Positions 20,314-57,431 of a stretch of 64,000 bases of DNA are shown here, in pieces. Source of the stretch: Candidatus Woesearchaeota archaeon (lineage in GTDB: Archaea; Nanobdellota; Nanobdellia; SCGC-AAA011-G17; CAYFGV01); contig CAYVLZ010000005.1 of the NCBI GenBank assembly GCA_964452525.1, positions 6,979 to 70,978 of the forward strand. The letters are read 5' to 3'. A program made the translations under genes and the position numbers. The first letter of the stretch is position 1. The number at the start of each line of letters is the position of its first letter. The notes under the pieces are model-generated. The model had not been told where the DNA came from. It saw only the letters and a list, made by a program, of their open reading frames with translations, and made no database searches.

Positions 20314-20421
20314 TGGAGCCGGTGGGATTTGAACCCACGACACCTAGATGGCTGCTCTTGGAGATCTTCAGTTTCACTTACTTTTGGAGTAGCTAGTGCT
20401 CTCCCCCTGAGCTACGGCTCC
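20314..20421 (-). tRNA. Intron-containing tRNA gene (about 108 nt; roughly 36-nt insertion in the anticodon-arm region). Anticodon uncertain; candidate CCA (Trp). CCA end not encoded
   Basis: Reverse complement GGAGCCG-UA-GCUC-AGGGGGA-GAGC-A-CUAGC...UCUAG-GUGUC-GUGGG-UUCAAAU-CCCAC-CGGCUCC-A. Acceptor, D-arm and T-arm (GUGGG/UUCAAAU/CCCAC) are canonical. The intervening 43 nt contain two CUCCAA copies (a C-U-CCA-A-A loop would be Trp), but I could not fold a clean 5-bp anticodon stem by hand. Confidence 0.7.
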
Positions 20422-49448: not shown

Positions 49449-50942
49449 TCACTTTATTTTTATTGTTTCTTTAACAAAACTTTTTGCATAATTTAAGTTG
49501 GTTTTGTTGTCAGAATATATCGTAAATAGTTTGTGCCCTTTATTTACCTTATCTTTTGTTTTTACGTATAGATATATTCCGGCTTCTTTGTCCTGAGGAG
49601 ATCCGGCAATTCTTGCAATCTTATTTATTTTTTTTATATCTATTGAACTAATGATTCCGGTTTTGCTCGCTTTGACTGTATGGGAAAATTTTCCTATTCT
49701 TAATTGTGAGGGTAGGATGTTGGGGTTTCCTTCTTGTGCTTTAATTATTTCCTTCATCCTTTTGTAGGCAAGACCTGAATCTAAAATACTTTTAACAAGA
49801 GTTTCTGATTTTTTTATCCCAACCATTTTTAAGATTATGCTAGCCATCTTGATGGATTTTCTTTCTAAGTCTTTTGGCGCTTTTTCATCTCTTTTTAATA
49901 TGTAAAGTACGTCTCTGGCTTCTAGGTTCGGACCTATTCCGTTTCCTATTGGTTGTGAACCATCTGTTAGTATTACTTTTATCTTTATACCTAATCTTCT
50001 CCCTATTCTTTTGAATTTTAATTTTAGTCTCTTGCCTTCTCTTATTGATTTTATTTTAGAATCTTTTCCGATTGGTAAATCTATTAGTACATGGGTTGCA
50101 TTAACTGCAGCTTTTTTTGCAAGTATACTGCTAATTAACATTGCTTCTGGGTCTAAGCTTAGAGAATGTCTTACTTTTATGAGTTTGTCATCTGCGCTTG
50201 CTAATTCTATTGCACCTCCCCATGCTATAAAGGCGTTTGTTTTTTTGATTATTTTTTTTAATTTTTTAATCGGCAAGTTTACTTTTGCTAAACTTTCCAT
50301 GGTGTCTGCGGTCCCGCTCGCAGAAGTTATGCTTCTTGAACTTGTTTTGGGAATGGTTAGATTGGCTGCAGCTAGAATTGGTACTACTATCATAGTTGTT
50401 CTATTTCCTGGAATTCCTCCAGAACAATGTTTGTCTACTATTATCTTTCTATTAATCTTTATTTGAGAGCCATTTTTAACTATGGCTTTTGTTAGGTAGG
50501 TAATTTCTCTTTCATCTAGCCCATGATTATAACAAGCAGAAACAAAATATGCTAGTTCTATTTCTGTTAGTTCGTTTGCTACTAGATCTTTCACTATAAT
50601 ATTGATCTCTTTTTCATTTAATTTTTTACCTTCAAGTTTTTTCTTTATCAATTCTATAGATTCTGGTATTGTTACTGGGAAGATTTTTACTTTTTGTTTA
50701 TCTTTAACTTTTAAAATATCTAGAACTTCTTCAAACAATCCTATTTTTCCTTTTTTAATGCCCTTGTCACTCTCTGATATATCTACTGCTGCTATTATTT
50801 GTTTTTTTCCTTTTTTTATCTTTATTCTATCCAATGCTTGGAGATCTAGTTTTTCTGCATCTTTATAGTTGAGTATTACTATTAACGGACCTCCAGAAGA
50901 GATATCTACGTCTTTAACTTTTAATAACATTTTTTTCCTCAT
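49449..50942 (-). CDS. deoA: AMP phosphorylase (thymidine-phosphorylase family, archaeal DeoA type)
   Basis: N-terminal extension characteristic of AMPpase, then the nucleoside-phosphorylase-II core HCSGGIPGNRTTMIVVPILAAANLTIPKTSSRSITSASGTADTMESLA; 497 aa. Confidence 0.8.
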   Translation of the reverse strand: MRKKMLLKVKDVDISSGGPLIVILNYKDAEKLDLQALDRIKIKKGKKQIIAAVDISESDKGIKKGKIGLFEEVLDILKVKDKQKVKIFPVTIPESIELIKKKLEGKKLNEKEINIIVKDLVANELTEIELAYFVSACYNHGLDEREITYLTKAIVKNGSQIKINRKIIVDKHCSGGIPGNRTTMIVVPILAAANLTIPKTSSRSITSASGTADTMESLAKVNLPIKKLKKIIKKTNAFIAWGGAIELASADDKLIKVRHSLSLDPEAMLISSILAKKAAVNATHVLIDLPIGKDSKIKSIREGKRLKLKFKRIGRRLGIKIKVILTDGSQPIGNGIGPNLEARDVLYILKRDEKAPKDLERKSIKMASIILKMVGIKKSETLVKSILDSGLAYKRMKEIIKAQEGNPNILPSQLRIGKFSHTVKASKTGIISSIDIKKINKIARIAGSPQDKEAGIYLYVKTKDKVNKGHKLFTIYSDNKTNLNYAKSFVKETIKIK

Positions 50943-51921
50943 AGAATTTGAAGAAAGTGATAGTCAATGCTAATATTAAAGGACCGATTATAACACCCAC
51001 TAAGCCGAACATTTTTATCCCTCCTACTAATCCTAGTAAGACAATTATTGGATGTATCTTGATCTTTGAGCTTATTAATCGAGGTTTTATTACATTATCC
51101 ACAGAGCTGATTATTATTGTACCATAGATTAGGAGCAGGATACCATTTATTACGTTTCCAGTGAATAATAAATATATTCCTGCTGGAACCCAGATCAAAA
51201 ATGGACCCACGATGGGAAGTATGGACATTGTGGCCATTACCACACCCCAGAACAAAGCGTTTGAAATACCAAATATTTTGAAACCTATTGCTCCCGCTAT
51301 TCCCTGTGCTATTCCAGCTACGATTAGACCAAATATAACAGACTTTGTAACTACGGCAAATTCTTTTATGACCTCTTCTTTATGTTTATTGTCTACAGGT
51401 AAAACTCTCTTTAATGTTTCTAGTAGATTTTCTTTGTCCTTAAGAACGTAGAAGAATGTAAACAGTATTACGAAGAGGGAGAATAACTTTCTTGGTATTG
51501 ATAATAAGAATTCTGGTATGGTTCCTGTTATTATATTAGTGATCTCTGATCTTGCTTCAGAAATATAGGTGCTGACGTCTATCCTGCTTCCTATTACCGA
51601 ACTTATTGCGTTAGATATCTCAGCTTCATCAATAGATCTTATTGAAGAATAAATGTTGAAGACCTCTTTTAATAATATGTTTGCTGCGAATATTGCTGGA
51701 ATTAATATTAAGATTATTAGAATAATTAACATTACGTAAGATGTTATTTTTTTATTTTTTATTTTTTTGTTCAGTTTTTTGAATAGTGGATAGAAGACGA
51801 AAGCTAATACTATTGCGGTTAGTACTGCATTTATGAAAGGGAGAATTATTTTAAATGATAAAATTATGAGTAATACTAACAATGCTAGAAAGAAATATTT
51901 TCTATGATTTCTGTTTTTCAT
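50914..51921 (-). CDS. AI-2E (PerM/UPF0118) family transporter
   Basis: 8 TM helices; C-terminal conserved pattern ...GPFLIWVPAGIYLLFTGNVINGILLLIYGTIIISSVDNVIKPRLIS typical of the family. Confidence 0.55.
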   Translation of the reverse strand: MKNRNHRKYFFLALLVLLIILSFKIILPFINAVLTAIVLAFVFYPLFKKLNKKIKNKKITSYVMLIILIILILIPAIFAANILLKEVFNIYSSIRSIDEAEISNAISSVIGSRIDVSTYISEARSEITNIITGTIPEFLLSIPRKLFSLFVILFTFFYVLKDKENLLETLKRVLPVDNKHKEEVIKEFAVVTKSVIFGLIVAGIAQGIAGAIGFKIFGISNALFWGVVMATMSILPIVGPFLIWVPAGIYLLFTGNVINGILLLIYGTIIISSVDNVIKPRLISSKIKIHPIIVLLGLVGGIKMFGLVGVIIGPLILALTITFFKFYEEKNVIKS

Positions 51922-51997: not shown

Positions 51998-52342
51998 GTG
52001 TTTACTATGGTTCCTACTATAGTTGGTTTTGTCGAGAAAGTTAGAATAGCAGATAAGCAAATAATGGCTAGAGTAGATACTGGAGCTACAATTAGTTCGA
52101 TAAACAAGACTTTGGTGGATAGCCTTGGTCTAGGGCCTGTTGTTAGAACTACTAAGGTTGCTAGTGCTCAAGGAAAGCAGGTTAGGCCGATTGTCATAGT
52201 TGATTTAGAAATTGCAGGGAAGAATCTTAAAGCAGAGTTTAGTGTAGCTAATAGGGACCACATGGAATATCAGATATTGATAGGAAGGAACATCCTGAAG
52301 CATGGTTTTTTGATTGATCCTAGGAAGGAATTTAAAAAATGA
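51998..52342 (+). CDS. Retropepsin-like aspartic protease (RimK-associated type)
   Basis: ARVDTGATISSIN contains the D-T/S-G-A catalytic motif; 114 aa; ATGA overlap with the downstream ATP-grasp gene. Confidence 0.65.
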   Translation: MFTMVPTIVGFVEKVRIADKQIMARVDTGATISSINKTLVDSLGLGPVVRTTKVASAQGKQVRPIVIVDLEIAGKNLKAEFSVANRDHMEYQILIGRNILKHGFLIDPRKEFKK

Positions 52343-53412
52343 AAGTGGCGCTGATTGGTTTGGGAGGAGATACTACTAAGTCAATAATCAGAGAATGTAT
52401 CGGATACTTCAAGAAGGCAGATTTTTTAGATATAAGGAAATTAAAGTTACATATAAGTTCTGATAGCGTTGAGGTATTTTATGATGATAATAATCTTGAG
52501 GATTATGATTGCGTTTATTGTAGAGGAAGTCATAAATATGCCTTGTTGTTGACGGGGATTACGGAGGCTTTAAATAGCAAATGTTATATGCCTGTCTCTA
52601 GTAACGCTTTTTTAGCTTGCCATAATAAATTTTTAACTTCTATGGAACTTCAAAAGGCCAATATTCTTATGCCTAGGACTTTCTTGGCATCTAATAGTAA
52701 TGCTGCTAAGAAGATTTTAGAAGAGATCCACTACCCTGTTATTATTAAAATACCTAGTGGAACTCATGGAAAAGGTGTAATGTTTGCTGATAGTAGGAGT
52801 AGTGCTAAGAGCGTCATAGACACCTTAGAAGTTTTTAATCAATCCTATATCATACAGGAATATGTTGAAACTGATGCTACAGATATAAGGGCGGTAGTTC
52901 TTGGAGATAGGGTTATTTCTGCTATGAAAAGAAAAGCTGCTAAAGATGAATTAAGAGCTAATCTCCACATGGGAGGAATGGGAATTGCTACCAATGTTAG
53001 TGAGGAAGTAGAGAGATTGGCTGTAAGGTCTGCAAAGGCCTTAGGTCTTGATATTTGCGCTGTTGATCTACTAGAGGGAGCTAAAACAAGCGTTTTAGAA
53101 GTTAATGTTAGTCCAGGTCTTAGGGGGATAAGTGAAGTTACTAAAAGAAATATAGCTAGAGATGTTGCTAAATTTTTATATGATAAAACTTGTAATTTTA
53201 AAAACATTAAAAAGAAAGAAGGATATGATGACATAATTAATGGTTTAGATAAGAAGATTAACAATCAGTTTCTGTCTAACCTAGATATAAAATTAGGTAG
53301 GATAAGATTGCCGGGAGCAGCCACTAAGTTAAGTGGTTTAACTGAGCATGACGAAGTTATGATTAAGGCTGATAGAGGAAAGATAATTATAACTAAGTCA
53401 GATGTTAAATGA
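52339..53412 (+). CDS. RimK-family ATP-grasp ligase (alpha-L-glutamate ligase-like) with about 90-aa C-terminal extension
   Basis: ATP-grasp core YPVIIKIPSGTHGKGVMFA...IIQEYVE...DIRAVVLGDRVISAMKRKA...LHMGG...AVDLLEG...VLEVNVSPGL. Confidence 0.7.
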   Translation: MKVALIGLGGDTTKSIIRECIGYFKKADFLDIRKLKLHISSDSVEVFYDDNNLEDYDCVYCRGSHKYALLLTGITEALNSKCYMPVSSNAFLACHNKFLTSMELQKANILMPRTFLASNSNAAKKILEEIHYPVIIKIPSGTHGKGVMFADSRSSAKSVIDTLEVFNQSYIIQEYVETDATDIRAVVLGDRVISAMKRKAAKDELRANLHMGGMGIATNVSEEVERLAVRSAKALGLDICAVDLLEGAKTSVLEVNVSPGLRGISEVTKRNIARDVAKFLYDKTCNFKNIKKKEGYDDIINGLDKKINNQFLSNLDIKLGRIRLPGAATKLSGLTEHDEVMIKADRGKIIITKSDVK

Positions 53413-53448: not shown

Positions 53449-54138
53449 ATGAAAGTTGCAATTTTGTTTAGCGGAGGAAAAGATTCTGTTAATGCTGTAG
53501 CTTTAGCTAAAGAAAAAGGATGGGATATTGATTATTTGCTTAGTGTTAAGCCTTCTAGAACAGATTGTTATTTGTTTCATTACGCTACTGTTGAATATAC
53601 TAAAGAGTTAGCTGAAATATTTGGTTTAAAGCATATATTAACTGGATGTGATGTAGCTGATCCTGAGAAGGAAGCAGAAATTATTAAAAATATTGTCAAA
53701 GATAATCCAGTTGATGCTGTTGTACTTGGAGGTGTTGGACTTCAGGAAACTCAGATCAATAGCATTAGAAAAGCTTTGAGTTCTTTAGGAGTAGAAGTTT
53801 TTGCTAGTCATGCTGAAGAAGATTCTTTAAAGTTGATGAATGAGATGATAAAGAATGGTTATGAGATTGTGATTACCGAGATAGCTTCTGATGGATTAAC
53901 TGAAGAACATATAGGTTTAAAGTTAGATGCTGAGAACTTCCCAAAATTTGTTGAATTGTCTAGAAAATATGGCTTTGAGGTTTTGGGAGAAGGTGGATAC
54001 TATAACACCTTGGTTGTAGATGGTCCTATTTTTGATAAAAGATTAGAAATTATTGACTCTGAGAAAGTTATGGAATCTGAAAATGTTGGATATCTAAAAG
54101 TGAATCAAGTTAAGATGTCTAAAAAAGTCATTCAATAG
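53449..54138 (+). CDS. Diphthine-ammonia ligase-like PP-loop ATPase (Dph6/MJ0570 family)
   Basis: VAILFSGGKDS PP-loop; about 229 aa alpha/beta ATP-pyrophosphatase domain. Confidence 0.6.
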   Translation: MKVAILFSGGKDSVNAVALAKEKGWDIDYLLSVKPSRTDCYLFHYATVEYTKELAEIFGLKHILTGCDVADPEKEAEIIKNIVKDNPVDAVVLGGVGLQETQINSIRKALSSLGVEVFASHAEEDSLKLMNEMIKNGYEIVITEIASDGLTEEHIGLKLDAENFPKFVELSRKYGFEVLGEGGYYNTLVVDGPIFDKRLEIIDSEKVMESENVGYLKVNQVKMSKKVIQ

Positions 54139-54685
54139 GGTCCACTTCATATAATTCTTGTCCATACTCTACGGGTTCTCCATTTTCAACTTCTACTTTT
54201 TTAATTTTTGCCTTATTGACTTTTTCTGATACTCTGTAATCTTCTGGTTCTATTTCTTCGTAGAAACAAGTTCCCAGGTTTACGTTTCTTCTTTCCTCCG
54301 GTTTTACTAATTTTACTTCGTTTGGTATTTTGAGAGCTTCTATTATTCCTATTGTGTCTCCAATCGATACTTCTTCTCCTTCTTCTATAGATATTCCAAG
54401 TATTTTATCAAATCTATAAAAGGTTCCTACTGAGGGGGATAAAATAAAATATCTATTTACTTTTCCTTCTAGATTTTCTTCATCACTCTTTATTGTTAAT
54501 TTTTCATTTTTTTTGTCTTTAACCATTGTTATTTTTAAGTTTATTTTGGATAGTGCCGGGATTATTTTTCCTTTATAATCTAGATACACCTCATGACCTT
54601 TTTCTTTTTGTTCTTCTAATAATTCTAGTAATTTGTTTAAATAATGCTTTCCAGATAGATATTCTTTTATAAGTTCAAAGCCCAT
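54128..54685 (-). CDS. Protein with C-terminal biotinyl/lipoyl-like hybrid-barrel domain
   Basis: SPSVGTFYRF...EEGEEVSIGDTIGIIEALKIPNEVK resembles biotin/lipoyl attachment domains (GD..IEAMK) but lacks the AMKM biotinylation motif. Confidence 0.45.
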   Translation of the reverse strand: MGFELIKEYLSGKHYLNKLLELLEEQKEKGHEVYLDYKGKIIPALSKINLKITMVKDKKNEKLTIKSDEENLEGKVNRYFILSPSVGTFYRFDKILGISIEEGEEVSIGDTIGIIEALKIPNEVKLVKPEERRNVNLGTCFYEEIEPEDYRVSEKVNKAKIKKVEVENGEPVEYGQELYEVDPIE

Positions 54686-54729: not shown

Positions 54730-55992
54730 TTATAATCCCCATTTTTTAATTGCTGTTTTTAGTTCTGGATGCGACTGTGCGTACTTCTTTAGAGTTATGT
54801 TCTGTAGTGATGCGTCTAGAGCTTGTTTAATTGCTTTTGCACCTTCTTTTGGCCCTCTGGGATGTCCGAATAAACCCCCCCCAAATTGGCATATTATGTC
54901 GTTTCCAAGGTATTTCATAAGTTTGGGTATTTGTGTTGGATATAAACCTCCGCTGCAAATTGCGAAAGTTGGTTTGATGTGATGCCAATTTTCAGCTAGA
55001 GTGTGGTTTGCTTCATCTTCCTTTATTATTTTCTTTTCTATTTCTTCTCCTATGTGCTGAACCTCTCTTTTACTTCCGGACATTTTTCCTATTATTGTGC
55101 CTATGTGGAGTTGGTCTATCCCTAATAATCTTGAAACATCAGCTATTACTAACATTGATACTCCGTGTTTGGGGTTTCTGGTTATTGCTGCGTGCCCGCT
55201 TCTATGGCCATGAATTATTAATTCTAGATTTTCATCCCTTAATGTTTGTAGAGATGACCAACCAGAAGTTATTATGTCTATCATGCAAAATCTTCCACCA
55301 TTTTCTTCTACAAATTTAGCTCTTTTAATCATTTCTTTAGTTTCTGCTGTTATGTTTGCTACGTAACCTTTTTTTTCTCCCGTTTCCTTTTCTACTTTTT
55401 TTCTCATCTTGAGAGTTAGTTTTACTCTTCTCTTAAATTGGTTAAAATTTAGGTTTCCTAGATTTTCGTCTTCTTTTATCATATCCATTCCGTTTTTCCA
55501 GAGAATGTAAGCGTTTTTAGCCTGTTCTTGAGAAGATAGCCCTACTTTTGGTTTTATTATGCTTCCAATTAGTGGACGTTCATGTACCTTTAGAATTTTT
55601 CTTATTCCAGGAATTCCGTATCTAGGTCCTTTAAAGCTTTTAATTATTTTATAAGGCCATTGTATATCTTCTAATCTCAGATTTTTAATTGCTTTCATAC
55701 CAAAAATGTTCCCTGCAATGCTTGAAAGTATTTGCGGCATATTTCCTTGTTCAAATAGTTGAGAAGGGTAAGCTATTTTTGTCCAGTTGCCTTTTATAGA
55801 GAATACCTTTGCTCCTATTTTTCTTATACTGGGTTTCATGGTTGATATTTTTGTCCAGGTTCCTATAGAAGATTCAGAAGCAATTTTCTCTGAAGCACTC
55901 TTAACACTTAACCCTTTTACGGGTTCTATGTAAAATGAACAGATTAGATCGTTTTGGGTTGGCTTATAATTTAGATTTACATATTTTAACAT
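54730..55992 (-). CDS. rbcL: Ribulose-1,5-bisphosphate carboxylase large subunit, form III (archaeal)
   Basis: SESSIGTWTKISTM (ESSTGTWT motif), GMDMIKEDENL (GLDFTKDDE-type), CQFGGGLFGHPRGPKEGAKA (C-terminal GG..GHP); 420 aa. Confidence 0.85.
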   Translation of the reverse strand: MLKYVNLNYKPTQNDLICSFYIEPVKGLSVKSASEKIASESSIGTWTKISTMKPSIRKIGAKVFSIKGNWTKIAYPSQLFEQGNMPQILSSIAGNIFGMKAIKNLRLEDIQWPYKIIKSFKGPRYGIPGIRKILKVHERPLIGSIIKPKVGLSSQEQAKNAYILWKNGMDMIKEDENLGNLNFNQFKRRVKLTLKMRKKVEKETGEKKGYVANITAETKEMIKRAKFVEENGGRFCMIDIITSGWSSLQTLRDENLELIIHGHRSGHAAITRNPKHGVSMLVIADVSRLLGIDQLHIGTIIGKMSGSKREVQHIGEEIEKKIIKEDEANHTLAENWHHIKPTFAICSGGLYPTQIPKLMKYLGNDIICQFGGGLFGHPRGPKEGAKAIKQALDASLQNITLKKYAQSHPELKTAIKKWGL

Positions 55993-57431
55993 TTTAGCAC
56001 CTTAGGAAGATCTTTTAAAGTTTTAATTATAAAATCTGGATTTTTCTTTTTTAAATTTTTCTTTGGAGTATTTCCACTAAGTACCGCAACAGTTCTTATT
56101 CCAGCTTTTTTTCCAGCTATTATATCATAGATTGAATCGCCTACCATGTAATCAGCTCTGATGTGTAGAAGCTTTTCTGCCCTGAATATCTCATCGGGAG
56201 CTGGCTTTGGTTCTTTTACGTCATCGTAACCGACTATTACATCAAATAAATTTATACTTATTCCTGCTGTGCTTAACAGTATTTCTATTTGCCTATGGGT
56301 GCAGTTTGATACTATAGCAAGTTTGTATTTTTTTCTTAATCTTTTTAGAGTAGACACTACTCCTTTGAAGGGTTTGATGTATTTTTTTGTCTCTTTTATT
56401 AGTATTTTATGCCTATCTTTTCTTATTTTTTCTATTTTTTTCTTCGATAACTTCGGATACAGTTTTTTTATAATCTTTGTTCCTAACATGCCAAACATAC
56501 TTTTAAGTTTTTCTGGATCTGTTTCTGGTAAGTTGTTTTTTTTGAAAGCTTTGTTGTAAGATAGAATATGTGATTTATTTGCATCTAATAAAGTATGGTC
56601 CATATCTAGACATATTAATTCTTTTATGGATTTGTATTCTTTTTTGACTTTTTTAATAAACTCTTTTGGCTTTAGGATTCCTAGTTCAGAGATTATGCCT
56701 GTTATGTGTTTTGGATTTATTATTTCAAAAGCAGGGTTTTTAATTTTTATTTTTCTGGGTGCATTTTTCCAAATCTCTTTGAAATTTCTTTGTTCTATGT
56801 CTACTCTTCTTGGCGAGAATTTCCAAGAGTCTGTTACTATGTAAACGGGAATTTTATGGTGATAAGCTATCTCAGCAAACATTCCCGAGCCTATTTTATT
56901 TATTACGGAGCCATCTGATAGTATAGCATCACAACCTAAAAGAACTAAATTTACTTTTTTCATTGTTTGGCTTTTTTTTAGCGCCACTCCTGCAGCAGAG
57001 TCCACCACTTGTGTTACATCTATTCCTAGTTTAGACAGCTCTTTTGCTGTTTTTCTTCCTTGATATAATGGACGCGTTTCTGTATTAAAAACTTTAAAAT
57101 TCTTACCTTGTTTTTTAGCCTCTTTTAATACTGAAATAACTGTAGAGCTGTGACAATGTGTAAATATTGTTGAATTGTTCTTTATTTTTCTGGTACCGAA
57201 TTTGTTTATTTTTTCTAGTGCTTCATTAAAGTGGTTCAGGGTGGTTTCAATTCCGTAGTCTTCTGCATAATCAAGAGCATTTTTTAGCATAGGTTCTGTG
57301 GGCCTTAAGCTTAGAAGCTTCTTTTTTGAAATCCCCTTTAACTTTAAACATTTAACGGCAGCTTTGGCTATATTCTGTGCACCCTGAATTCTTAAGGTTT
57401 TAATGTCTTTATACAACTTAGAAGTTTGCAT
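55986..57431 (-). CDS. Fusion protein: ribose-1,5-bisphosphate isomerase (eIF2B-like, e2b2) N-domain plus HAD-IA phosphatase C-domain
   Basis: N-terminal about 300 aa eIF-2B alpha/beta/delta-like (TIFTHCHSSTVISVLKEA...VLLGCDAILSDGSVINKIGSGMFAEIAYHHKIPVYIV). C-terminal about 170 aa with HAD motifs ICLDMDHTLLD (DxDxT), IVSNCT, KEPKPAPD, GDSIYDIIAGKKAG. 7-nt overlap with the rbcL start. Confidence 0.7.
   Translation of the reverse strand: MQTSKLYKDIKTLRIQGAQNIAKAAVKCLKLKGISKKKLLSLRPTEPMLKNALDYAEDYGIETTLNHFNEALEKINKFGTRKIKNNSTIFTHCHSSTVISVLKEAKKQGKNFKVFNTETRPLYQGRKTAKELSKLGIDVTQVVDSAAGVALKKSQTMKKVNLVLLGCDAILSDGSVINKIGSGMFAEIAYHHKIPVYIVTDSWKFSPRRVDIEQRNFKEIWKNAPRKIKIKNPAFEIINPKHITGIISELGILKPKEFIKKVKKEYKSIKELICLDMDHTLLDANKSHILSYNKAFKKNNLPETDPEKLKSMFGMLGTKIIKKLYPKLSKKKIEKIRKDRHKILIKETKKYIKPFKGVVSTLKRLRKKYKLAIVSNCTHRQIEILLSTAGISINLFDVIVGYDDVKEPKPAPDEIFRAEKLLHIRADYMVGDSIYDIIAGKKAGIRTVAVLSGNTPKKNLKKKNPDFIIKTLKDLPKVLKC

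Follow-up and report, generated by a model that had tools for sequence, protein, structure and literature searches.

A RimB/RimK-like protease–ligase gene pair in a Woesearchaeota archaeon: a probable poly-glutamate writer and eraser with an AbrB-like domain on the ligase

In Pseudomonas, the ATP-grasp ligase RimK extends the C-terminus of RpsF with alpha-linked glutamates and produces free poly-alpha-glutamate as well (PMC11957791). Its partner RimB is a dimeric retropepsin-like endopeptidase that needs approximately 5-6 contiguous Glu residues and recognises the tail, not the protein fold (PMC11957791). This poly-glutamate-specific enzyme trims the RpsF tails made by RimK and modulates the ligase itself (PMC11957791, PMC7343187, PMC10092738): it stimulates poly-Glu synthesis by RimK (PMC11957791) and alters its ATPase activity, with the divergent terminal surface of RimK as the proposed docking site (PMC10092738). 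A comparable gene pair, encoding a retropepsin-like protease and a RimK-family ligase, is present in a 64,000-nucleotide stretch of Candidatus Woesearchaeota archaeon DNA (GenBank assembly GCA_964452525.1, contig CAYVLZ010000005.1, positions 6,979 to 70,978), referred to as the window in the following. A preceding analysis made from the DNA letters and translated open reading frames (ORFs), the sequence-only reading, had called this type of pairing functionally unresolved. For bacteria this is outdated, as papers from 2016-2025 on Pseudomonas show that RimK builds and RimB cleaves poly-alpha-L-glutamate. The role which that reading had suggested for the archaeal pair, poly-glutamylation and processing, is still the most likely one: the pair is probably a poly-alpha-L-glutamate writer and eraser of the RimB/RimK type, because the catalytic and poly-Glu-binding residues of the protease, the catalytic residues of the ligase and the constant pairing of both genes are all conserved.

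The RimB–RimK systems of P. fluorescens, P. syringae and P. aeruginosa (PMC4741518, PMC7343187, PMC10092738, PMC11957791) likewise consist of a cytoplasmic retropepsin encoded next to a RimK-family ligase. The window protease shares with RimB the catalytic DTG and the poly-Glu-binding basic residues, and the ligase core has the fold of bacterial RimK with approximately 33% sequence identity. The window pair differs in that its host is an archaeon and so offers no bS6 target, in that no RimA or cyclic di-GMP (c-di-GMP) component is found, and in the AbrB-like domain at the C-terminus of the ligase. The protease is also shorter (approximately 110 instead of 148 amino acids (aa), with a 22-residue segment missing), and both proteins stay under the NCBIfam equivalog cutoffs for RimB and RimK. 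The 2025 RimB paper surveys bacterial genomes only and does not mention archaea. A different gene order is seen on a Vibrio nigripulchritudo plasmid (locus L089), which carries rimK, a succinylglutamate desuccinylase/aspartoacylase-family gene, a RimB-like gene annotated as "RimK/LysX family protein" and a mechanosensitive channel gene; the intervening metallo-carboxypeptidase-like gene is foreign to the Pseudomonas model.

A PF05618 retropepsin that cleaves poly-Glu is also linked to an ATP-grasp protein in the RloA-RloB-RloC operon of P. aeruginosa (PMC12239564). RloA proteases cut runs of at least eight Glu (PMC12239564) and are secreted with signal peptides, which the archaeal proteases lack. 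Among the neighbours in the loci related to the window, there is no RloB-type seven-transmembrane gene with an inactive transglutaminase domain. Distant protease relatives of 194 aa do reside in bacterial RloABC-type operons, where a transglutaminase-like membrane protein accompanies them and the architecture differs from that of the window pair. The same two catalytic modules are combined in the RimBK or RimK-DUF785 fusions of Desulfotalea psychrophila, Rhodobacterales, Flavobacteriales, Synechococcus, Halobacteria and marine phages (PMC11957791, PMC2530865). The halobacterial fusions were noted in 2008, and the association is therefore already present in archaea (PMC2530865). A 456-aa Thioclava fusion aligns to both window proteins, although in the window the two modules are separate, translationally coupled genes. 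In Halobacteria the protease domain is reported at the C-terminus, the place taken by the AbrB-like domain in the window ligase. MptN, CofF and LysX/ArgX belong to the same TIGR00768 subfamily as the window ligase, with cross-scores of 80-150 bits, but have no protease partner; the window ligase misses all of their equivalog cutoffs and is found without LysW or cofactor context.

The window protease matches PF05618 (DUF785) with 57.7 bits (Pfam cutoff 27) and PF13975 with 43.4 bits (cutoff 28.2), in line with the retropepsin-like protein recognised in the sequence-only reading. It remains below the cutoff of the NCBIfam RimB equivalog NF052261 (31.9 bits versus 200) and below those of the RloA equivalogs (NF052262-4), with RloA3 as the top NCBIfam match (60 bits versus 210). 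By sequence, its nearest PDB entries are the DUF785 protein 2pma and Pseudomonas RloA (9g58 and 9g59). The catalytic motif VDTGAT is found at D27 (all residue numbers of the protease refer to the 114-aa frame), and the catalytic Asp is not lost on alignment, D[TS]G[AS] being present in each of the 82 archaeal relatives. The second retropepsin hallmark is kept as well, as ILIGRNIL in the window protease and LIG(Q/R/K)N in the family, and the window protease is predicted to be an intact retropepsin.

The residues that hold the substrate in RloA can be followed into the archaeal family. K46, R114 and R137 of RloA are conserved contacts to octa-glutamate that are also conserved in RimB, and the R114A and R137A variants show strongly reduced poly-Glu cleavage and fail to complement the mutant (PMC12239564). 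Using the numbering of that paper, which corresponds to the chain index plus 20 (D28 becoming D48), these residues align to R25, R63 and R86 of the window protease. A basic residue (K or R) at position 25, R at 63 and R at 86 each occur in all 82 archaeal proteases. When two bacterial sequences, a RimB-like protein from Vibrio and the protease portion of the Thioclava RimBK fusion, are included in the alignment, R63 and R86 stay invariant together with the catalytic D, G and A, and position 25 is K or R in these two proteins and in the window protease. An N-terminal hydrophobic run or signal peptide is absent from all 82 proteases, and they are therefore predicted to be cytoplasmic like RimB, and not secreted like RloA. 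Their median isoelectric point is approximately 10 (n=82). The archaeal proteases represent a minimal form of approximately 107-118 aa; the segment that they lack follows the DTG strand in bacterial RimB-like proteins.

Assignment of the downstream protein to the RimK-family ATP-grasp ligases, as first read from the sequence, holds with 194.9 bits against TIGR00768 (rimK_fam, cutoff 143.4) and 138 bits against PF08443 (cutoff 21). More than 100 full-length relatives share approximately 45-55% identity with it, with E-values down to 1e-122. Its top sequence matches in the PDB are the RimK structures 7qys, 5zct, 4iwx and 7qyr from Pseudomonas and E. coli (approximately 120 bits), to which residues 21-282 align; Vibrio RimK shows 33% identity over 270 residues (ligase residues 28-293). 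An AlphaFold model of the ligase has a predicted local distance difference test score (pLDDT) of 89, and Foldseek places RimK first (TM-scores 0.85-0.90), followed by ArgX and LysX. The invariant catalytic ATP-grasp columns among 82 homologs include K97, K137, R184, R206, N208, H210, D243, E254 and N256. R62, R184 and N256 match R64, R189 and N262 of RimK, which contact the resolved poly-Glu chain in RimK-PA.

The NCBIfam equivalog models do not single out one substrate. Their cross-scores were calibrated with a genuine Vibrio RimK as control. The RimK model NF007764 gives 134.5 bits for the window ligase and misses the cutoff of 331 (control 447.9), while 149.5 bits are reached with LysX_arch (TIGR02144, cutoff 275.6, control 140.3), 149.1 bits with MptN (NF040720, cutoff 350, control 160.7) and 80.2 bits with CofF (TIGR04443, cutoff 300, control 82.0). 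Since a genuine RimK also attains 140-161 bits with the LysX and MptN models, the scores of approximately 149 bits are interpreted as ordinary family cross-talk that carries no specific signal. From these comparisons, the ligase clade is best regarded as its own subfamily in TIGR00768. A ligase of the LysX/ArgX type, which would load a LysW-like carrier with an amino-acid precursor during lysine or arginine synthesis, next to an unrelated or carrier-processing protease, finds some support in a LysX_arch score slightly above that of the RimK equivalog and in ArgX and LysX as structural neighbours, but is the most improbable of the readings considered here. The grouping with LysX/ArgX raised in the sequence-only reading is not observed: by sequence as well as by structure the ligase lies nearer to RimK, LysX/ArgX entries in the PDB yield only 77-85 bits, and its obligate partner is a protease with poly-Glu-binding residues. 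A pattern search for LysW-like Zn-ribbon ORFs found none in the window, and among the 84 related loci it found one small, non-recurrent Zn-ribbon candidate without the EDWGE tail; lysY/Z/J/K-like neighbours are missing from the window and the related loci. Highly improbable, too, is the addition of one or two glutamates to a small-molecule cofactor, as by MptN or CofF. Such roles are known for characterised archaeal RimK homologs, and the MptN and CofF models do score, though far below their cutoffs and no higher than with a true RimK. A co-encoded protease that needs runs of 5-8 Glu would find no substrate on such cofactors. The remark in the sequence-only reading that obvious coenzyme F420 or tetrahydromethanopterin (H4MPT) biosynthesis context is lacking also applies here: the neighbours include no cofactor-biosynthesis genes, and none for lysine biosynthesis either.

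A scan of the GTDB species-representative genomes gave at least 396 loci that encode some kind of relative. The best 80 of these cover the full length of the ligase including its C-terminal domain, and nearly all of them are labelled Woesearchaeota, Nanoarchaeota or Nanoarchaeia. The full-length form occurs in at least 80 species-level genomes of the DPANN archaea. A survey of genomic context in DPANN genomes had been proposed together with the sequence-only reading. In it, 82 of 84 related loci have the protease gene directly upstream of the ligase gene and in the same orientation, and in the two exceptions the ligase is too close to the contig end. The pairing is thus obligate, or effectively universal, across a large DPANN clade. 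Clustering of approximately 850 neighbouring ORFs from the 84 loci revealed no third constant partner. Several labels in this set look doubtful, such as "Omnitrophota bacterium" or "uncultured Methanosarcinales archaeon" for L066 (CP070655.1), L044, L048, L049, L053 and others. A second archaeal subgroup, exemplified by L091, combines a 131-aa RimB-like protease with a C-terminal tail and a plain 291-aa RimK-like ligase, which is 33% identical to the window ligase and has no AbrB-like domain; judged from P0130 and L085, this subgroup is probably Aenigmarchaeota-like. In L088, a 118-aa RimB-like protease is encoded beside a gene of the DUF1611 family (PF07755). No ATP-grasp ligase is found less than 5 kb away, and the protease represents an orphan or differently partnered retropepsin.

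Homology to bacterial RimK stops at approximately residue 293 of the ligase. The extra C-terminal domain noted in the sequence-only reading is therefore real but shorter than the 90 aa given there, comprising approximately 64-75 aa, and it can now be assigned to the AbrB/MazE-like domains. It is made up of a long helix, followed by a disordered linker and then a folded unit of approximately 45 aa with β-β-α-β-β topology. This unit is strongly conserved, with the family pattern NLDIK-G-I[RK]LP--TK---F--DDEV-I---GK--IKK, and contains the G-x-[IV]-[RK]-[LI]-P signature of the PF04014 clan. A Pfam scan of the C-terminal 80 aa of the window ligase itself gives no match; PF04014 is matched by the corresponding domains of 14 of 54 homologs (best E-value 1e-6) and SymE_toxin by 11, the latter being presumably a toxin-antitoxin family related to AbrB/MazE-type domains. 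Compared with the PDB, the profile of the domain family detects MazE at E-values of 0.016-0.023. An AlphaFold model of the domain on its own has a pLDDT of 84, and nearly all of its top 30 or so Foldseek matches in the PDB are AbrB-N, SpoVT, MazE, VapB and Sso7c4, with probabilities up to 0.98 and, the domain being small, weak E-values of 0.07 or higher. The model thus identifies the C-terminal unit as a swapped-hairpin half-barrel of the AbrB/SpoVT/MazE type. In regulators and antitoxins of the PF04014 clan this fold is located N-terminally, whereas the ligase carries a divergent subtype at its C-terminus.

The subtype is apparently confined to this clade of Woesearchaeota/Nanoarchaeia ligases, because an exhaustive profile search of 1.84 billion representative proteins retrieved only the ligase family or apparent fragments of it. 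Just 85 matches were obtained at E-values up to 1e-3; of nine that were inspected most are fragments of the ligase family, and the remaining short ones also match C-terminally. The domain is absent from the RimK crystal structures, and neither plasmid-borne bacterial rimK nor phage rimK genes match over 80% of the query or beyond approximately residue 308. Conserved basic positions in the domain are K318 (96%), R323 (94%) and K330 (70% K/R), beside which lies a conserved acidic DDE patch at positions 337-339. AbrB, SpoVT, MazE, VapB and Sso7c4 form a classically DNA-binding fold family, and together with the basic positions this raises the possibility that the domain binds DNA and makes the ligase a transcriptional autoregulator or tethers it to chromatin. 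Such a function would be compatible with poly-glutamate chemistry but is considered unlikely. A k-mer enrichment upstream of the operon in approximately 80 loci detected no palindrome or operator and only the shared promoter element, the domain has a median net charge of just +2 and contains the acidic patch, and at E-values up to 1e-3 the profile misses the canonical AbrB/MazE proteins.

The writer and eraser proposed here could work as follows. A single transcription and translation unit would yield both enzymes in fixed proportion. The ligase, probably a tetramer by analogy with RimK, would add L-glutamate stepwise via alpha-peptide bonds at the expense of ATP, either to the C-terminal carboxylate of a protein or peptide or to free glutamate. 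The protease would act as a cytoplasmic homodimeric retropepsin in which each subunit contributes one D27, and a basic cleft formed by R25, R63 and R86 would hold the substrate. By cutting Glu runs it would limit the chain length. Binding to the ligase, with an adjustment of ligase activity, is a probable second role. The AbrB-like domains of neighbouring ligase subunits probably pair into a swapped-hairpin barrel. Most likely this barrel offers a surface to which the acceptor, a polyanion such as nucleic acid or the poly-Glu chain, or the protease dimer can dock. Docking of the protease would fit the observation that the extension leaves from the end of the ligase that corresponds to the proposed RimB-binding end of RimK, and that the archaeal proteases lack the bacterial segment.

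The gene structure agrees with a common unit (Table 1). The ATG at 52007 is favoured over an alternative GTG start by a deposited 111-aa gene model of the identical protein and by the N-termini of homologs. A B recognition element (BRE)/TATA-like element, TAGAAATGTTTATAAAAAA, is centred approximately 25 nt 5' of this ATG, and an element of the xGAAAnnTTTAAAA type precedes the protease start by 22-30 nt in most of approximately 80 related loci. Its position so near to the ATG suggests a leaderless or very short-leader archaeal transcript for the operon. The tight coupling of both genes, already seen in the sequence-only reading, is borne out by the ATGA overlap, which is shared by 43 of 81 related loci; in 32 further loci the two genes overlap differently or are separated by at most 60 nt (75/81 in total). 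The overlap is interpreted as translational coupling of protease and ligase. A 139-aa antisense ORF of low-complexity composition lies wholly inside the ligase gene and is treated as spurious.

Table 1. Features of the protease–ligase locus, its surroundings and loci mentioned for comparison (window positions unless a locus is named)
Feature	Position	Strand	Basis or remark
BRE/TATA-like promoter element TAGAAATGTTTATAAAAAA	51970..51988	+	sequence reading; putative promoter function
Retropepsin-like (RimB-like) aspartic endopeptidase	52007..52342	+	111 aa; PF05618 and PF13975 matches
Protease ORF from the alternative GTG start	51998-52342		114 aa
Span with three predicted poly-glutamate-coordinating basic residues	52070..52258	+	alignment to RloA; codons R25 52070-52072, R63 52184-52186, R86 52253-52255
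Catalytic D27-T-G-A motif	52076..52087	+	D27 codon 52076-52078; D[TS]G[AS] in archaeal relatives
ATGA overlap, protease TGA stop/ligase ATG start	52339..52342	+	sequence reading
RimK-family ATP-grasp ligase with C-terminal extension	52339..53412	+	357 aa; TIGR00768, PF08443
ATP-grasp core, homologous to RimK (residues ~1-284)	52339..53190	+	alignment to RimK
Long helix (272-303), then low-confidence linker (~298-312)	53152..53274	+	AlphaFold secondary structure, pLDDT
AbrB/SpoVT/MazE-like swapped-hairpin half-barrel domain (residues 313-357)	53275..53409	+	homolog profiles, model, Foldseek
Antisense ORF inside the ligase gene	52845-53264	-	139 aa
AMP-salvage set (three genes)	49449-50942, 54730-55992, 55986-57431	-	
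AI-2E-family permease	50914-51921	-	PF01594
Dph6-like PP-loop ATPase	53449-54138	+	
Biotinyl/lipoyl-like domain protein	54128-54685	-	185 aa; PF00364
tRNA	20314-20421	-	108 nt; Rfam
Acidic Cys-motif proteins	L016 5804-6073, L026 5623-5910, L035 5295-5612, L039 6373-6669, L059 5620-5910	-	
Second archaeal subgroup, protease and ligase	L091 1277-2593		
RimB-like protease beside DUF1611 gene	L088 3869-5357		
Vibrio nigripulchritudo plasmid locus	L089 2914-6180		

The genes around the pair are read as lineage synteny and not as parts of the module, because they are confined to closer relatives. A Dph6-like PP-loop ATPase gene starts 36 nt after the ligase and scores 160 bits against TIGR03679, below the cutoff of 197.3. 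In 19 of 84 loci it is found no more than 4 kb from the ligase, mostly downstream and in the same orientation, and in L001 a class-I glutamine amidotransferase gene follows and overlaps it. As a functional partner it was rejected, since its occurrence (18 loci by clustering) is limited to closer relatives. The module is embedded in an archaeal AMP-salvage set, which comprises genes for an AMP phosphorylase-like protein whose N-terminus resembles CDC48_N, for the large subunit of a form III-type RuBisCO, and for a fusion of a ribose-1,5-bisphosphate isomerase (IF-2B family) with a HAD phosphatase domain. These genes flank the module in 8-10 of the 84 loci. A tRNA elsewhere in the window is detected by Rfam (51.7 bits) and missed by ARAGORN; its length would fit an intron-containing archaeal tRNA.

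Divergently upstream of the protease lies the gene of an AI-2E-family permease, an arrangement that is found in 29 of 84 loci by phmmer and in 34 by clustering. This gene bears on a serious alternative, in which the pair makes and turns over free poly-alpha-L-glutamate without any protein acceptor. The polymer might then serve as a reservoir of glutamate or charge, as an osmolyte or as a cation buffer, and the protease would recycle it or set its length. Apart from the permease, this would be in keeping with the synthesis of free poly-alpha-Glu by RimK and its stimulation by RimB, and with a module that has neither bS6 nor a candidate acceptor in its vicinity. It is nevertheless regarded as unlikely. 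The permease link is limited to closer relatives, and a clade-specific AbrB-like domain of a macromolecule-binding type is easier to explain by recruitment. A protein or peptide acceptor is favoured over purely free poly-glutamate, although it falls somewhat short of being probable in its own right.

Several points weigh against the proposed RimB/RimK-type function. To our knowledge, bS6 is a ribosomal protein specific to bacteria, and archaea do not possess it. The known target of RimK is therefore absent and the acceptor cannot be bS6, which makes the S6-like substrates considered in the sequence-only reading unlikely; an rpsF-like gene was not seen in the 64-kb window. Neighbouring proteins that end in EE or contain runs of at least five Glu show nothing systematic, and no neighbour family ends in a Glu run. 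The ligase scores below the RimK cutoff and equally well with the LysX and MptN models, so that sequence alone leaves its substrate unfixed. The missing 22-residue segment could alter the specificity of the protease or its binding to a partner, and the archaeal members are assigned by analogy, with biochemistry available for the bacterial enzymes. Finally, the RimBK protein of D. psychrophila has an active protease but no ligase activity on SBW25 RpsF (PMC11957791), and protein-ligase activity can therefore not be assumed for every family member.

Two sets of proteins near the module or its relatives deserve mention in this context. In the window, a 185-aa protein with a biotinyl/lipoyl-like domain (PF00364, EALK motif) has ...EVDPIE as its C-terminus. 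The 84 related loci contain no homolog of this protein, which is a formal, unsupported candidate acceptor with a C-terminal Glu. In five related loci, very acidic proteins of 89-105 aa with a Cys motif (...KC-LC...RFCSEEHAE...) are encoded a few hundred bases downstream of the ligase; a Glu run opens three of them (as MEEEEF or MMEEEEF), and EE or EEE is the C-terminus of two. No homolog of these proteins is found in the window.

The family assignments and the protease–ligase pairing as such are already known. PGAP, the NCBI annotation pipeline, names relatives of the ligase "RimK family alpha-L-glutamate ligase" and some relatives of the protease "RimK/LysX family protein". A literature search combining RimK with DPANN, Woesearchaeota or AbrB retrieved no paper describing the module, and the near-universal pairing in DPANN archaea, the minimal form of the protease and the clade-specific AbrB-like domain of the ligase were found in no paper. 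Relative to the searchable literature, these three features appear to be new.

The module combines all residues required for poly-glutamate chemistry, yet it resides in archaea that lack the RimK target. Its wide retention in small DPANN genomes suggests that the pair probably has an important role. At approximately 110 aa, the protease ranks with the smallest RimB-type retropepsins of this analysis and would suit structural work on poly-Glu recognition, while the clade-specific AbrB-like domain offers an experimental handle towards the acceptor. Tentatively, the locus may represent a first case of protein poly-glutamylation in archaea, in which a dimer of AbrB-like domains would recruit the ligase to a non-bS6 macromolecular target and the retropepsin would erase the mark. 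This target could be nucleic-acid-bound or otherwise macromolecular, for instance a ribosomal, chromatin or translation-factor protein. If this is true, the retention of the pair across many Woesearchaeota and Nanoarchaeia with small genomes would point to a central regulatory role. In eukaryotes, reversible poly-glutamylation of proteins is well known on tubulin. If a protein acceptor were discovered for the archaeal pair, regulated poly-glutamylation would reach into the third domain of life as well.

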